A model generated the notes under the pieces. The model saw only the letters and a list, made by a program, of their open reading frames with translations, was not told the origin of the DNA and made no database searches. A program made the translations under genes and the position numbers. From assembly GCA_964593455.1 (NCBI GenBank), contig CAZQHK010000042.1:1-30090 (forward strand): a DNA stretch of 30,090 nucleotides, in the 5' to 3' direction. Shown here piece by piece: positions 334 through 29,644 of this stretch (positions within the stretch are counted from its first letter, which is position 1; each line of letters begins with the position of its first letter). The stretch is from an uncultured bacterium (GTDB lineage: Bacteria; Muiribacteriota; CAYSPT01).

Positions 334-1587
334 ATGACTGCTCGTCGGCAAAAGAAAAGAGAGATACCTATGATTACCAGGATACTATTCGATACACAGC
401 GGGGAAAATACCGGCTTTGGCTATTACCGTTGGTGCTGCTGATTCTCGTGCTTGTCATGTTCAAGCTCGTTGGCGGTAAGATCCAGAAGAACAAGGTTGG
501 TAAACCGGAAATACTGGTCAGTACGCAGCATGGCCGGGTACAGGAGGTCTATGTCAAGCCAGGAGACGTGATCCAGCCGGGCAAAGAGCTGGTCAACTTC
601 GTCGTCACGGATCAAACAGGTAAAACCGGGACGGTACAGGAGCGGGATGAGGCTGTCGATGTCACGGTGAAAACCATTGCCGGTGAACAATTTGTCGATC
701 AGGTAGAACTTCCCGGAATCACCAGGGCGTTCCTGGAGTGCGAGGTATCGGCCAAGGTAGGTGGTGAAATCGTTGAGATCCTGGTGGGAGAGGGCCGTGA
801 CATTAAAAAGGGTGACGTGATCGCCAGAATCGAGAAAAAGGATTACGTCATCGCTTTAGCCCAGGCGCAGGCCGCTTTCGATCTGGCCAAGCTACAGTAT
901 AACCGGATGCAGAAGCTGGTCAAAGAGAAAGCCACCGCTCAATCCGAACGGGACAAGGCGGCGGCTGATTATCAAAGTGCGAGTTCGGCTTTGGATCGCG
1001 CCCGGCTGCATCTCGATAGATGCGATATTCTTGCCCCGGTGGAAGGTATCGTCAACCGAAAATATGTTGAGGTGGGGGAGAGCATCGATTCCGGCAAAGA
1101 AGTGGCCAGGATTCTCAACATCGACAAGATTAAAATCAGTATCGGTATCCCCGAGCAGGACGTGAGTTATGTCAGAAACATTAAAGAGATGACCTTTACC
1201 ATTCCGTCAATTGGTAACCGGATCTTTTCAGGACTGGTGGATCATCTTTCTTTTTCCACATCTCCCATAGCCAAGGTGTATCCGCTCGAAATCCATGTGG
1301 CCAATGAGGACCATGCACTTCTCCCTGGCATGGTGGTCAAAGGCCGGGTGGTTAGAAAAGTATACGAGAACGCCGTTTTGCTCCCGCTCTTTTCGGTCAT
1401 TCCGGGTGACAACGAGTACTACACGTTCGTATACCGGGACGGCCGGTCCGAGAAACGGGAGATCAGCCTGGGTACATTCCAGGAAAAATTGGTTCACATT
1501 CTGGACGGGTTGAAACCCGGCGACCGGGTAATCGATAAAGGTTTGCGGCTGGTGGCGGACGGAACCAAGGTACGGATCGTGGAGTAG
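334..1587 (+). CDS. RND efflux periplasmic adaptor subunit (membrane fusion protein, HlyD/AcrA family); the real start is probably ATG at 370 (MITRILFD…)
   Basis: N-terminal membrane anchor, then a biotinyl/lipoyl-like beta hairpin (GDVIQPGKELVNF … KGDVIARIE), then a coiled-coil hairpin and a beta-barrel. It lies 12 bp upstream of an AcrB-type pump, which is the typical adaptor-pump operon order. Confidence 0.85.
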   Translation: MTARRQKKREIPMITRILFDTQRGKYRLWLLPLVLLILVLVMFKLVGGKIQKNKVGKPEILVSTQHGRVQEVYVKPGDVIQPGKELVNFVVTDQTGKTGTVQERDEAVDVTVKTIAGEQFVDQVELPGITRAFLECEVSAKVGGEIVEILVGEGRDIKKGDVIARIEKKDYVIALAQAQAAFDLAKLQYNRMQKLVKEKATAQSERDKAAADYQSASSALDRARLHLDRCDILAPVEGIVNRKYVEVGESIDSGKEVARILNIDKIKISIGIPEQDVSYVRNIKEMTFTIPSIGNRIFSGLVDHLSFSTSPIAKVYPLEIHVANEDHALLPGMVVKGRVVRKVYENAVLLPLFSVIPGDNEYYTFVYRDGRSEKREISLGTFQEKLVHILDGLKPGDRVIDKGLRLVADGTKVRIVE

Positions 1588-1599
1588 ATCTGAAGATCG

Positions 1600-4500
1600 A
1601 TGATAATCAGTGACATTTCAGTGAAAAATAGAGCCAGTGTGTGTATGCTGGTGCTGTTGATCGTGATCCTGGGGACGGTTTCGTATATCGATCTTCCTCG
1701 GGAAGCGACCCCGGATGTCAAAATTCCGTATGTTTTCGTGTCCACCGGTTACACGGGGGTGGCTCCCAAGGACATCGAAACCTCTATTACCATTCCTATC
1801 GAGGACAAGTTGAAAGGACTCAAGAACGTCAAGGAGATTAAGTCGAGCTCCGCTGAGGGTGCCAGTTCCATATCAGTGGAGTTTGTCACCGGCACCGAGA
1901 TCGACGATGCCGTCCAGTGGGTCAAAGACAAGGTTGACATGGCCAAGCGGGAACTCCCCTCCGATCTGGAGGATGATCCGGCTGTTTTTGAAATAAATCT
2001 TTCCGAGATGCCGATCATAGCTCTGGGGCTCAAGGGCCCCATGGGCCTGAGACAGCTCAAGGAGATAGCCGAGGATTTCAAAGATGAGATCGAGGCTATT
2101 CCCGGTGTGCTGGAAGTGGACCTGGTAGGCGGGCTCGAACGGGAGATCCACATCGAAGTCGACCCCGATTTGCTGGCGGTCTACGGGATACCCTTCAATG
2201 TGCTTTACCAGGTGGTGACCGGGGAAAACCAGAACGTCTCCGGCGGCAATATCGCCATGGGAGACGGCCGTTACCAGCTCCGGGTGCCTGGTGAGTTCAA
2301 AAATGTCGAGGAATTCCGCAACTTGATCGTTACCATCGTTGAGGACTCCCCCGTTTATTTGCGCGATATCGCCGTTATCAAGGATTCGTTCAAGGACATC
2401 ACCAGTAAATCAAAGCTCAATTCTAAAGATTCCATCAACCTGTACATCAAGAAACGGGTCGGCGAAAATATCATCTACATCGCCGACGCAGTCAAAGTGC
2501 TCCTGGAGGAACACAAACTGACCTTCCCGGCGGGCTTGACGGTAACGGTCATGATGGACCAATCCGAAATGATTCGTTTCATGCTGGAAGACCTGGAAAA
2601 CAACATCATTACCGGGTTCCTGCTGGTGCTGCTGGTGCTGATGTTCGCCATGGGATTCAGAAATGCCCTGCTGGCCAGTATCGCCATTCCACTCTCCATG
2701 GCTTTGAGTTTTGCCATACTCTACTTCATAGACATTACCCTGAACATGGTGACACTGTTCAGCCTGATCCTGGCCCTGGGGATGTTGGTTGACAACGCCA
2801 TCGTCATCGTGGAAAACATCTATCGGTTCACCAGCCAGGGTGTTCCCCGGATGCGAGCGGCCATGAGGGCCACCGGCGAGGTAGCCTGGCCGGTTATCGC
2901 CTCCACCGCCACTACCGTGGTGGCCTTCTTACCGCTTTTGTGGTGGGGCGGTCTCATGGGTGATTTCATGCGCTACATGCCCATCACCCTGATCACCACG
3001 TTATCCTCGTCGCTGTTCGTGGCCCTGGTGATCAACCCTACCTTCTGCTCGTTGTTCATTAAATCCGTGAAACAGACGGGCCGGCCAAGATCCGAAGAGG
3101 AGATCCTCGCCGCCGGTGAGAAGCCCTTACAAGGCGGCGGCTGGATTATAAAGAGTTATGAGTATATACTGCGAAAATCTCTCGAATCGCGTATGGCAAT
3201 GCTGGTTTCCTCGGTGTTGCTGTTGGTACTGCTCACCAGCGTGTGGCTTTTTCGTACCGGGATCGAGCGGCCGGTGGAGTTCTTTCCGTCGGTTGACCCG
3301 GAGACCTGCTACGTCAATATCGAACCTCCCGAAGGTATGGACTTGGAGGCCCTGGAAGCCATTGCCTCCCAGGTCGAGGACCGTCTGAGGTCATTCGAAG
3401 CGGTCCCCGAAAAGTTCTTTTCGGAGAAGGTGAAACCACCGGTTCTGTCGCCACGGGCCGAGAAGAAATTCGCAGCCTATCTCGAAGAGGAAGGCCTGGC
3501 GGACCAGGAGAAGGTCAGCGATCTCCAGAACATCAAGTTCATATACACCCGGCTCTCTACCCGACTCGAATCCAAGATGTTCATGGGGGGAGGAGGTCTT
3601 TCCAACCATATCGGGGTGCAGTTCCAGGACTTCGAAGGGAGACCGGAAAAATCGTCCGACACCATCGAGCGCATCAGGGCCCGGCTGAAAGGGATTCCCG
3701 GGGCCCAGATCACCGTGGCCCAGCAGGAAGAGGGTCCGCCCACCGGCGCTCCTATCAACATCGAGGTGTCGGGAGACGATTTCGAGATACTGGGGCTGAT
3801 AGCCGAGAAGGTCAAGATGGTTGTCAGTCAGGTGCCTTACGTTAAAGAGGTTGAAGACGATTTCCAAAAAGGGGCGCCCACCATCGAGCTGATCGTGGAT
3901 CGCAAGAAAGCGGCGCTTTTCGGAATTACCACCGGCATGATCGGCACTACCATCAAAACTGCCATCAGCGGCTGGAACGTCTCGACCTACCGCGAGGGGG
4001 ACGACGATTACGATATTTTTATCCGGGTAGCTGATGCGTACCGCAAAGACGTGGACATCCTGCGCAAGCTCTTCCTGCCGACACCCCGGGGTCTGGTACC
4101 GCTCTCGGACCTGGTTACCATCAACTACATCGGGGGGCTGGGGGCCATCAATCGCATTAACCACCGCCGCGTGGTTACCGTGAAGGGGGATGTTGACGAA
4201 ACGAAAATACCCGGCGCCGTGGCCCGGATGATCGCCCAGAAGATGCTCCAGAAGTTCGATCTTCCTCCCGGCTACACCTTGAAATTCACCGGTGAGGAGG
4301 CGTTCCAGACGGACTCCGAAGCGTTCTTGAAAAAGGCGTTCATGATCGCCCTGTTCCTGGTGTTCATCGTGCTCGTGATTCAGTTTAATTCGATCTTAAA
4401 CGCCGTTATCATTATGTTTACGGTCATCCTTTCCCTGGGTGGCATTTTTCTCGGATTGGCGATGGCCAACATTCCTTTCGGTATCATCATGACCGGTATC

Positions 4501-6349: not shown

Positions 6350-8176
6350 TTATTTTTTCCGGGTGATGAGGATTCCGAAGCCCTGTCCGCTCAGCGGTTC
6401 GTTAAAGATCTGTTTTACCGGCTGGTAGTTGTCCAGAATCCATCGAAAGACATTTTCGCCGTAACCGGGGTGACCGAAGTACCGGTACCCCCATTCGGCG
6501 GCTTCCTTGTCGGCAATTATTATAAAATCCGGTGGATCGTCTTTAAACGATTGCAGTATCGTGCTTTGTCCGAAGATGGTAAACTCCGTAGGCATGAAGT
6601 TCATGTAGGGTACGGTGCTTCGGCGCCTGGCAAGGTAGTTGAGCATGACTCCCTCGGGGACCACGGTGAACGTTTCTTCTTTCCCAATAAGTTCCTCGAT
6701 GACCGTTAAAGCCTCTCTCATTCCCTCTCCTCGCAACGACATTTTACGTTTCTCGGTTACGATCTTGTCCCTGCCTTCCCCCACGGAAAACGTTTTAACC
6801 AGTAGCACCGGCAAGGCCGACAGGACATGGCCGGTCAGGACGATGCCCAGCAGAATCACTGACACCTTCTGCAGAAACCGGCGGGTGGTCAAAGACGTTG
6901 CCAGTCGGGAAGGGAGCAGGTGAACCAGGGCTGCCGCGATCATCAGAGAAGCGGGCATAGCCAGGGCGAAACCGTACCGGTAAATCTTGGCGTTGAGGAT
7001 GATTTTAGCCATGAGAATGAGTGAGAACATTGAGAAAACGAAGAGTGGAAGAGCCGTGTTTACAATGTCTCGATCATTGCGGCCGCGGATAAACGTTACA
7101 GCGTAATAAATCACTATTCCGGCCGTGGCCAGGGGCAGTGGCCTGGCTATACTCAACCAGGGAATCGTATACGCCAGCGCCGGTCCGGCCAGGAGAAGCA
7201 GGGCCGTAACCGATTCCGTCATGACCGTTTTGTGCGCCGGTTCTTCCAGTCGCCGGTGAAGCCAGCCTAGCAGGACCAGAATGAGAATAACAAAGCTGCA
7301 GATTCCAGCGGTCTCGAGCAGGGCGGTCAGGTTGGTCCACGGCTTGTCCATCCCCTGGACCGAGCTGAAAAAAGGGTTGGCGGTGACCGCAGAATCGAAG
7401 AGGTACAGGTACGGCCGGATGAGGCTGGCCGCGGCCTTCGAAAATCCTAAATGACGCGTCATGAATAAGATAAATCCGGTTATTGGAATGAGAAAACCAC
7501 CCAGTCCCAGTCCGATTGCCAGGACCGTTAACCGTCGAGACGGTTTCCGGGTCCATAGGTACCCGATAAAACCCGACCAGAGGGCGATGGCAGCCGCCAG
7601 AAACACTTCCGATTTGGTCAGGGCGGCCATTCCGGCCAGGATTCCTACCGGCAACCACCATACCGGTTTTCCGTCCTCAATGAAGTTACTGAAGAAGTAG
7701 ATGGCAGCAAACGAGAGAATGATACCGTGGGGTACTTCCGGTGTGTACGGACACACCCAGTTCCAGTTGGCGATTCTCCCGCCGTACTGGGAGAAAGCGA
7801 AGATAGTCAGAAAGGTAGTGACTGCGCAGGCGGCGGTCAAACGGTCGATGGTTTTCAGGAAAAACCGGTAGATCAGGATACAGAGGATAGTCACCAGGGT
7901 CATGTTTCCGGTGGCAATGGTCATCATTCCGGTGCCGAACAACCGGAAAAGGCAGGCATTGAAGTAGTGAGATAGCGGCCCAAAAAACCAGGCGATATCC
8001 CGGTAAAGCACCTCTCCCTCATTGAGACGCCAGGGAATGTAGAGCGACATCCCGAAATCCACCTGCACGTCAGGCCATTTTCGCCAACTTAGCCACAGCA
8101 TGGCCGCGCCGGCCAGCATCGGGACGGCGATACCGATAAGTGACTGAATCAGCTGGTTTTTCTTCATGGCTTTCAA
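6350..8176 (-). CDS. polytopic membrane protein, putative GT-C fold glycosyltransferase (ArnT/PMT/YfhO-like), about 14 TM plus a C-terminal soluble domain
   Basis: 608 aa, very hydrophobic N-terminal 450 aa with many TM segments, then a C-terminal soluble domain. The family assignment rests on architecture only. Confidence 0.55.
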   Translation of the reverse strand: MKAMKKNQLIQSLIGIAVPMLAGAAMLWLSWRKWPDVQVDFGMSLYIPWRLNEGEVLYRDIAWFFGPLSHYFNACLFRLFGTGMMTIATGNMTLVTILCILIYRFFLKTIDRLTAACAVTTFLTIFAFSQYGGRIANWNWVCPYTPEVPHGIILSFAAIYFFSNFIEDGKPVWWLPVGILAGMAALTKSEVFLAAAIALWSGFIGYLWTRKPSRRLTVLAIGLGLGGFLIPITGFILFMTRHLGFSKAAASLIRPYLYLFDSAVTANPFFSSVQGMDKPWTNLTALLETAGICSFVILILVLLGWLHRRLEEPAHKTVMTESVTALLLLAGPALAYTIPWLSIARPLPLATAGIVIYYAVTFIRGRNDRDIVNTALPLFVFSMFSLILMAKIILNAKIYRYGFALAMPASLMIAAALVHLLPSRLATSLTTRRFLQKVSVILLGIVLTGHVLSALPVLLVKTFSVGEGRDKIVTEKRKMSLRGEGMREALTVIEELIGKEETFTVVPEGVMLNYLARRRSTVPYMNFMPTEFTIFGQSTILQSFKDDPPDFIIIADKEAAEWGYRYFGHPGYGENVFRWILDNYQPVKQIFNEPLSGQGFGILITRKK

Positions 8177-24713: not shown

Positions 24714-24717
<4 letters not shown>
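23344..24717 (+). CDS. exported TPR-repeat protein with a C-terminal peptidase-MA-like (HExxH) domain
   Basis: Signal peptide. About 5 TPR units in the first 230 aa. VFHEYTHLLVQ…WLNEGLAV (HExxH with a downstream E) in the C-terminal half. Start at the second Met, preceded by a good RBS. Confidence 0.7.
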
Positions 24718-28198
<3,481 letters not shown>

Positions 28199-28211
28199 CC
28201 ACATTAGTCAT

Positions 28212-28352
28212 TTGGCATGCTTTCTACGCTCACTATTCAATTGAGATTTTTACCCGGGCGTCGGCTTGTAAATTCCGCCAAAGGTGAGTGCGAACATTGA
28301 GGTGTAGCGTGAGCCAGGTGGTCCCACCCTCAAGCAAACCAGAAAGTGAGGT
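28212..28352 (-). repeat. long copy of the dispersed intergenic repeat, in inverted orientation relative to 14975-15110; it abuts the stop of the collagen-like gene
   Basis: The reverse complement (cctcactttctggtttgcttgagggtgggaccacc…cgctacacctcaatgttcgcactcac…cgcccgggtaaaaatctcaat) aligns along its full length with 14977-15095. Confidence 0.6.
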
Positions 28353-29373
28353 TAATCGAGAGGAGGAGATCCACCGGCGGTTGAAAACGATATGACCAGC
28401 CAGTTGGAACCACCACTGACCAGTTGAGCCGAATCGTATTGGGATTCGAGTACCAGGGTCGAGGCTCCATCAATTATTTCCGAACCGGCCGCGGCAATGG
28501 TAATAACATTGTTTGATCCGTCGACTTTCTTGATAACATATATTCTCCCGGCAATCCCCGAGGCAGTGGGCAGTGTGATCGTGATGGCTCCGCCGGTAGC
28601 GTTCGCTGCTACGAAATAATCGCTGTCCGTGAGGGTGTAGGCAGCTGTTTCCAGCCACTTGTCGTCACCCTTGGCCCCGGCATCGCCCTTGGTGCCCTGC
28701 AGACCCTGGAGCCCGGTGTCGCCTTTGTCACCTTTGGGGACTTGATTCCCTTGGCCGTCTCCGGATACCAGGGCTGAGGTCTGGACGGTGCCGTCCGGGA
28801 ACTTGATTCCTCCGTTGGTAATGTGAACAAGTCCGTCCACTTCAAGGGGAGAGGATGGGGCGGTGGTACCGATTCCAACATTGCCGGTGCCTCTGTCTAT
28901 CACAAATAGTTGTTTTCCTTCTGCTGTATCGCTGTCTTCAGGGACATAGACGTATTCAGCAAGGTTGTACTCCTGGTTTCCGTGTCGGTCTTTGACCCTG
29001 ACGCCGAACACGTACCGGTTGCCTGGGCAATCACCTGTCCTTCAACCGTTCCTCCCTGGAACGAAAGGAGAGTTGCTGTTTCCAGGATATAGGCATCTCC
29101 GGGTGGAATGGCGATGGCATCGGTATATTCATAGGTTTCGTAACCTTGATGGACTAGCCTGATCTGGTATGATCCCACCGGTATCTGCTGAATGTTGAAA
29201 GAACCGTTATCGTTCGTATAGCCCAGGGTCTCCAGAGACGAGGATTCATTGGCAGGCGTGCTGCTTCCGCCTCCCCCACCTCCGCAGCCGTTGATCATTA
29301 CTATACAACCGATTATCGAGAATAAGGTAAGAACAGATGTTCGTTTGTTGTTATTCCTGGTAGTGTAATTCAT
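28352..29373 (-). pseudogene. lipoprotein with a CarbopepD_reg-like beta-sandwich, a collagen-like Gly-X-Y repeat and a tail-fibre-like C-terminal domain; interrupted by a frameshift near 29015-29040
   Basis: N-terminal lipobox plus a Gly run (IIGCIVMINGCGGGGGGSS) and a beta-rich domain (frame A, 28900-29373). Frame B (28352-29041) contains GDGQGNQVPKGDKGDTGLQGLQGTKGDAGAKGD, then ITITLPTASGIAGRIYVIKKVDGSNNVITIAAAGSEIIDGAS…SNWLVIS. Each frame turns to low-complexity or stop where the other becomes protein-like. Confidence 0.6.
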
Positions 29374-29644
29374 ACGTGCAGACCTTCCATCGTCCGTGAT
29401 GCTTTTTCTTCCCGGGTGTACGTACTGCCCTAAATTGCTCCGATGTAATTATAACAGCCTTTTCCTCATCTGGTCATTTTTTTATGTATGGAAAGACGAA
29501 ACTTTATTAGGGCTTGGATATAGGATATGTTATATGTTTAAGAAATTCTCAATATGAGAAATTCATCCTGCTTGACCGGAAAATCATGATCGTTTCTGCC
29601 TGATGCTTTACTTTTAAATGGATATTGGTTACCCTGCAAACAAT

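Follow-up and report, generated by a model that had tools for sequence, protein, structure and literature searches.

Deletion scars in a frame-broken gene for a fibre-like lipoprotein between ligA and birA of an uncultured bacterium

Between ligA and birA, in a 30,090-nucleotide stretch of DNA from an uncultured bacterium (the window, meaning the whole of the stretch that was analysed), two overlapping minus-strand reading frames together encode pieces of what looks like a lipid-anchored fibre protein, with the anchor in one frame and the tip in the other. The question raised by this locus is whether it holds a gene interrupted by a sequencing indel, a recently inactivated adhesin, or a surface protein switched by slippage, the three options named by the first-pass annotation, or a working pair of genes. 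Comparison with homologues suggests that it is probably a recently decayed remnant of a fibre lipoprotein gene: a pseudogene, or at most a split gene that is badly impaired.

Reading frames and surviving domains

Both ORFs lie at the coordinates first given for them, with ORF B in frame -1 relative to ORF A, and the following features fall within them:

28900 to 29373, minus strand: ORF A, ATG start, 157 aa, TGA stop at 28902-28900
29284 to 29373, minus strand: signal peptide with lipobox, aa 1-30, located by regular expression and by nine aligned homologues
29056 to 29244, minus strand: N-terminally truncated CarboxypepD_reg-like domain, aa 44-106, 82% identical to residues 167-226 of the relative P0001
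29023 to 29055, minus strand: orphan first strand GGTVEGQVIAQ, equivalent to the start of CarboxypepD_reg domain 3 in all relatives
28352 to 29011, minus strand: ORF B, GTG start, 219 aa
28943 to 29014, minus strand: orphan last strands of an Fn3-like domain in frame B (YVFGVRVKDRHGNQEYNLAEYVYV), with weak fn3 and Y_Y_Y matches on P0001 347-415
28769 to 28885, minus strand: single fibre-stalk unit, GNVGIGTTAPSSPLEV...GGIKFPDGTVQTSAL, matching the end of the second beta-helix region of Bd2133 (8OND)
28661 to 28732, minus strand: short collagen-like run of 8 Gly-X-Y triplets, 24 aa uninterrupted
28355 to 28663, minus strand: all-beta tip domain at the C-terminus, whose 103-aa model shows the fold of phage tailspike, gp9 and tail-fibre attachment domains

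The promoter-like site and the good Shine-Dalgarno sequence (GGAAGG) upstream of the ORF A start codon are both intact, and the exact ORF A product is present on 15 public contigs. In a three-frame translation frame B, which encodes for example the peptide GNVGIGTTAPSSPLEVDGLVHITNGGIK, is open from 29041, and ORF A and ORF B overlap by 142 nt. ORF B has neither a signal peptide nor a Shine-Dalgarno sequence. The public gene call, here ORF B', begins at a GTG at 28903 and runs for 183 aa; its start overlaps the ORF A stop as GTGA, with a purine-rich AAGGA about 13 nt upstream.

ORF A consists, in order, of the lipoprotein signal, a Gly6 linker, the truncated CarboxypepD_reg domain, the orphan first strand, about 37 out-of-frame codons and the TGA. 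Its N-terminus has the sequence features of an SPase II lipoprotein signal (n-region, h-region and, by residue 35, a lipobox Cys): basic residues R6, K10 and R11 are followed by a hydrophobic stretch, two candidate lipobox cysteines (C23 and C30) and GGGGGG, so that the lipoprotein signal and poly-Gly linker of the first-pass annotation were both found. C23, in SVLTLFSIIGC, fits the PS51257-type lipobox pattern, and C30 (INGC followed by GGGGGG) aligns with the lipobox Cys of nine homologues, which read (L/I/M/T)(A/S/T/C)GC plus poly-Gly; C30 is likely the lipidated residue. The transthyretin/CarboxypepD_reg-like domain that had also been proposed is recognisable, but it is truncated at its N-terminus and its Pfam match (PF13620) stays below threshold, with 29.1 bits for ORF A, where the cut-off is 32.3, over profile positions 25-77 of 82, and 27.8 bits for the merged A+B protein. 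The orthologous domains in P0001 are above the cut-off (89 bits), and the window copy is, judged by its profile coverage, a truncated member of the family.

In frame B the retained last Fn3-like strands read YVFGVRVKDRHGNQ..., and residues 37-81 of ORF B, the stalk unit, match residues 202-246 of the 8OND chain of Bd2133 (E = 2.7e-14). A Gly-X-Y run of 33 residues had been reported; the uninterrupted run is confined to the eight triplets listed above, and Pfam Collagen (PF01391) gives 14.6-15.3 bits on the window protein, short of its cut-off of 27.2. The tip domain has an all-beta AlphaFold2 monomer model built on a 54-sequence alignment (pLDDT 93.2, pTM 0.85). A Foldseek search with this model returned 385 viral proteins at E <= 0.001, many of them named tail fibre, minor tail or collagen-repeat, and the domain also matches PHROG families 37034, 20556 (baseplate) and 15797, all of which supports the tail-fibre-like C-terminal domain that had been suspected from the residue pattern. 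The model gives a confident structural match to solved members of the phage gp9/tailspike attachment-type fold.

Deletions and genomic setting

A search of 5.8 billion proteins with both ORFs joined found a single close relative, P0001 (462 aa), which is encoded on contigs L001-L003, all three identical and one being a scaffold from Tara Oceans, and which has, like the window gene, a divergent birA (biotin ligase) neighbour. By BLASTP and BLASTN the window aligns with L001 in four collinear blocks, at 77-88% nucleotide identity, with large gaps between them:

window 30090 to 29215: collinear with L001 516 to 1402
window 29223 to 29022: collinear with L001 1826 to 2027
window 29016 to 28884: collinear with L001 2508 to 2640
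window 28483 to 28398: collinear with L001 2664 to 2749

Two scars were located in the window from this alignment:

29215 to 29223, minus strand: deletion 1 scar, with one GGCTATACG left where L001 has two GGCTACACG copies 432 nt apart
29014 to 29022, minus strand: deletion 2 scar and frame switch point, where 480 nt of L001 (2028-2507) correspond to 5 nt (29021-29017)

Deletion 1 measures 432 nt, or 144 codons, and is in frame; it took out CarboxypepD_reg domain 1 together with the N-terminal end of domain 2, which is why the window match lacks the first 24 profile positions. The GGCTACACG copies at 1394 and 1826 of L001 are perfect 9-nt direct repeats that bound the missing segment. Deletion between short direct repeats is the usual signature of slippage or illegitimate recombination.

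Deletion 2 has a net loss of about 475 nt (3n+1) and comprises nearly all of CarboxypepD_reg domain 3 and most of the Fn3-like domain, cutting across domain boundaries, so that all that survives is the opening strand of domain 3 and the closing strands of the Fn3-like domain. The frame switch, placed earlier near 29015-29040, is put by homology between 29022 and 29014, to which the breakpoint can be resolved at this divergence, with GTAC and GCTGGT microhomologies both possible. P0001 reads through the same junction in a single frame, with 160 extra residues there and a complete Pfam CarboxypepD_reg domain at 227-300 (profile positions 2-78). The frame break is, by this alignment, the scar of the deletion of about 475 nt and not a small indel. 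A one-base deletion in an ACN codon, also considered as its cause, was dropped because of the 160 residues missing there relative to P0001.

Both deleted segments are kept in P0001 and in all nine giant homologues described below, and in a MAFFT alignment of the N-termini of the nine giants, P0001 and the window, both gaps are unique to the window sequence, from which it follows that DNA was lost in the window lineage and not gained in L001. A tblastn search with P0001 and the merged protein found the missing segments, as paralogue or silent cassette, neither in the window nor in its 10-kb flanks.

The deletions are fixed in the sampled population. Of the 15 contigs with the exact ORF A product, 10 were retrieved and compared, and every one of the 10 matches the window at 100% identity over a 1,462-nt span that runs from where ligA ends to where birA begins. 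Six are ENA assemblies (BioSamples SAMN18055982, SAMN18055983, SAMN18055984, SAMN18055987, SAMN21575213 and SAMN21575218) and four are NCBI assemblies (GCA_024711605.1, GCA_024711645.1, GCA_024711805.1 and GCA_024711905.1). A difference in gene content between L084 and L085 upstream of the locus was traced to N gaps in the scaffolds and is not biology.

The L001 gene carries damage of its own. Its conserved ATG, with the same GGAAGG Shine-Dalgarno sequence, lies 76 nt from the P0001 Met, as against 75 nt in the window, and is out of frame with the gene body, with the extra base among A7 runs. Further on, the 400 nt at 28883-28484 of the window are represented in L001 by 23 nt, through an out-of-frame deletion that took most of the collagen run and the tip; the tail of the tip (SEPIDGASNLILESQYDSAQLISDGSNW) is left in another frame than that of P0001, which stops early. 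At the homologous position the first GNVGIGTT stalk unit survives in the window and has been lost from L001, and a stretch of about 29 residues found in the giants is missing from both. As separate observations on these contigs, the one-base offset at L001 1249-1325 falls in a stretch with two A7 runs and may be a real frameshift or a homopolymer miscall, three assemblies agreeing on it, and just past the P0001 gene, at L003 2110-2290, a segment of about 160 nt lies between the inverted repeats GGATATTTCAC and GTGAAATATCC. L001 and L002 both end inside that segment, which suggests a multi-copy, assembly-breaking element, unrelated to the window repeat described next.

The gene lies in a segment that is itself peculiar to its lineage. 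The window LigA is at most 71% identical to that of any GTDB species representative, the best being that of an uncultured bacterium (locus L015) and the others reaching at most 60%. In L015 birA follows directly after ligA (8025-8040), where the window has 1.4 kb between them (28198-29618), and the adjacency of the two genes in L015 marks the window fibre gene as apparently dispensable, lineage-specific cargo. Among 80 loci in GTDB species genomes, scanned with ligA as the anchor, none has a homologue of the lipoprotein next to that gene; a scan of genome contigs with P0001 found no relatives, and neither did a scan of metagenome contigs that used the window/P0001 alignment as its query. One border of the segment is marked by a repeat:

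28240 to 28352, strand not assigned: repeat of about 113 nt abutting the ORF B stop, bordering the lineage-specific 1.4-kb segment between ligA and birA

The first-pass annotation had noted one copy of a roughly 135-bp repeat at the stop codon; it does abut the stop, and its length is about 113 nt. The sole other copy is inverted, at 14996-15100, and 82% identical, and each copy sits between the 3' ends of convergent genes. No further copies occur in the 10-kb flanks, L001 or L015, Rfam at gathering thresholds finds nothing in the window, and the fold of the repeat has no energy signal relative to shuffled sequence (z 0.0 to 1.6). It may be a small intergenic mobile or REP-like element. Elsewhere in the window, a direct repeat of 214 nt with 74% identity (25170-25383 and 25869-26082) lies inside a 484-aa ORF (24714-26168), whose product has two PCMT/methyltransferase units in public Pfam matches; the repeat looks like an internal domain duplication.

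Decay, selection and competing explanations

A real frame disruption combined with the loss of conserved domain segments relative to homologues is what characterises a pseudogene, and both are found here. The proposed history starts from an ancestor in which a lipid anchor and a poly-Gly linker preceded three transthyretin-like CarboxypepD_reg domains and an Fn3-like domain, followed by a presumably trimeric stalk of GNVGIGTT-type units, a collagen-like run and a phage-like tip. Deletion 1, in frame between the two 9-nt direct repeats, took away domain 1 with the beginning of domain 2, and deletion 2 took domain 3 and most of the Fn3-like domain while shifting the frame. From the conserved ATG, translation would now yield a lipoprotein of 157 aa that has a single incomplete domain and a tail of about 37 nonsense residues, and the stalk unit, collagen run and tip now stand in another frame, where they have no export signal. 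The window gene would thereby have lost its function. Relatives with an intact single reading frame, for which a check had been proposed, do exist, as the nine giant homologues are uninterrupted and P0001 is in one frame across the junction. Among the three options first offered, the recently inactivated adhesin is the one that fits the deletion scars, its adhesive role being assigned by analogy.

Selection on the gene was estimated by comparison with L001. Nei-Gojobori dN/dS values of 0.245, 0.18 and 0.18 over 67, 43 and 28 codons, which are averaged over both lineages and noisy, accompany a dS of 0.3-0.6 (0.34-0.64 across the three coding blocks), and the low dN/dS extends to segments that are now downstream of the frame break. 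By these substitution patterns, purifying selection is estimated to have dominated most of the time since the window and L001 split, a pattern that is read as inactivation of the two genes recently and independently. Either the breaks would be recent relative to this divergence, or the downstream frame would still be translated.

The latter possibility underlies the suggestion of a functional split, in which ORF A is a small lipoprotein and ORF B' (183 aa), coupled to it at the GTGA, forms a separate small trimer. This is unlikely, although the stop/start overlap with its upstream AAGGA, the low dN/dS in frame B and a tip domain that is intact and modelled with high confidence all speak for it. 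Export of ORF B' as a surface fibre would be impossible for a protein with neither signal peptide nor anchor, and ORF A would consist of a truncated domain followed by its nonsense residues. The GTGA overlap, moreover, also occurs in L001, where it is an off-frame by-product of conserved FVID codons. Conservation of the two ORFs as separate genes elsewhere, which would count against a broken gene, is seen in none of the relatives.

A broader proposal is that the scarred locus is still used, as a lipid-anchored stub with a translationally coupled mini-fibre, and that deletion between short repeats is a recurrent way of changing length or tip in giants resembling the mosaic adhesive trimer fibres of Bdellovibrio. 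The different deletions carried by the two orthologous loci and the purifying selection visible in their downstream frames are compatible with continued use, yet this proposal is to be regarded as decidedly unlikely.

It is very improbable that the break is an artefact of sequencing or assembly, with a missing base or collapsed repeat concealing one continuous ORF. Metagenome assemblies can collapse repeated domains, and this gene has three similar CarboxypepD_reg domains, but the deleted segments are not near-identical DNA repeats, and the stretches shared at them measure only 9 nt and 6 nt. Among the 10 contigs, which come from at least six BioSamples and include ENA re-assemblies as well as NCBI assemblies, the locus does not differ by a single base, and the junction lies outside any homopolymer. 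The sequencing indel envisaged earlier also fails on the product, as one added base would fuse domain fragments (a first strand with last strands) and would rebuild no sensible, intact protein.

Phase variation by slipped-strand mispairing, the slippage control suggested earlier, or programmed -1 ribosomal frameshifting joining ORF A to ORF B can hardly be credited: the -1 relation and the overlap of the two ORFs would suit such a switch, but 29050-28900 contains neither a slippery X_XXY_YYZ heptamer in the zero frame (that of ORF A) nor a short tandem repeat, the sole homopolymer of at least four is AAAA at 28916, about 100 nt from the junction, there is no length variation among the 10 identical population samples, and the joined product would still be short of two and a half domains.

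With decay as the preferred reading, the locus is best annotated as a disrupted gene and not as two proteins, an assembly error or a phase-variable gene.

Giant fibre lipoproteins and known fibre systems

In an exhaustive HMMER search, residues 2-425 of P0001 align as one stretch to the N-termini of nine proteins at 43-52% identity. These homologues are giants of 1,920-3,821 aa, all starting with a lipoprotein signal, xxGC and poly-Gly, followed by three CarboxypepD_reg domains, an Fn3-like domain, a long stalk full of the GNVGIGTT-type motif, and varied tips. The C-terminus is Peptidase_S74 in two of them, P0125 at 59 bits and P0123 at 56 bits (cut-off 22), and P0123 also has strong collagen repeats (Pfam Collagen, 91.5 bits). 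P0126 (3,201 aa) ends in the window tip domain, with 46.6% identity, and P0122, P0129 and P0132 carry other tips. The window gene has in common with the giants (P0122-P0132) the lipobox, the poly-Gly and an ancestral module of three CarboxypepD_reg domains and an Fn3-like domain, with the first stalk motif at the same position; the giants differ in having 1,500-3,300 more stalk residues, in being uninterrupted and in their genomic context.

Two of the giants, P0126 and P0122 (2,697 aa), stand in tandem on contigs L094-L096 (9-18094), with the same N-terminal module and different tips, and the same 287-kb contig is reported to carry a third, P0132 (1,920 aa). In the clusters of P0124, P0125, P0129 and P0130, members within 90% identity span 453 to 3,821 aa. 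Some of the shorter members, on contigs of about 100 kb, start internally; these could come from genes that are split or frameshifted, from N gaps, or from genuine variation in length.

By analogy with known fibres, the intact giants most likely act as trimeric fibres, anchored by lipid, that hold a binding tip out from the cell surface, and this family of giant lipoprotein-anchored fibres in uncultured bacteria is apparently undescribed. The window remnant itself matters little; the giant family is the worthier object for the study of cell-cell or cell-particle recognition.

Three kinds of known protein invite comparison. The phage comparators of the tip are the N-terminal region of CBA120 TSP4 (7REJ/7RFV), gp9 with the proximal subunit of the long tail fibre (9F4A), and Solidus gp83 (24QJ). 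Sequence identity of the window tip to these solved phage structures is only 18-23%, and unlike phage attachment domains it stands at the extreme C-terminus of a bacterial lipoprotein, beside the housekeeping genes ligA and birA; no phage genes near the locus were noticed in the gene lists of the public contigs. Bacterial collagen-like adhesins such as Legionella Lcl and streptococcal Scl1/SclA have, as the window does, a Gly-X-Y run before a globular C-terminal domain. The window protein has only eight triplets, however, has no similarity to Lcl or Scl1/SclA outside the Gly-X-Y run, and scores far below the NCBIfam cut-offs (24 against 500 and 16 against 400 bits).

The third comparison is with the mosaic adhesive trimer (MAT) fibres of Bdellovibrio bacteriovorus (PDB 8OND, 8OJN and 8OML; Caulton et al. 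2024, PMC10769870). In MAT proteins the signal peptide leads straight into a conserved N-terminal domain, rich in beta structure and about 130 aa long; the stalk is a beta-helix whose hallmark is the capping-loop motif VG(I/G/N)G..P...L, and the C-termini are mosaic, with either a Peptidase_S74 chaperone or an alternative tip, which define S74 and NS74 subfamilies (PMC10769870). The window stalk unit, GNVGIGTTAP...GGIKFPDGTVQT, matches the MAT protein Bd2133 just before the linker and tip (E = 2.7e-14, as above). Such stalk units number one in the window and many in the giants, and the mosaic C-terminus is likewise found, as S74 in P0125 and P0123 and as a non-S74 tip in P0126 and the window. 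The N-terminus of the giant family (lipobox, poly-Gly, three CarboxypepD_reg domains and Fn3-like domain) looks different, by description, from the MAT N-terminal domain, and the size of its members, 1,900-3,800 aa, sets the family apart. Beside MAT fibres the window copy is a relic of 1 kb, scarred by deletion and broken in frame, with a single stalk unit. At the level of sequence, both the stalk and the mosaic tips of the family to which it belongs resemble those of S74 and NS74 MAT fibres, and by the same analogy the members of this family would form trimers and serve in adhesion.
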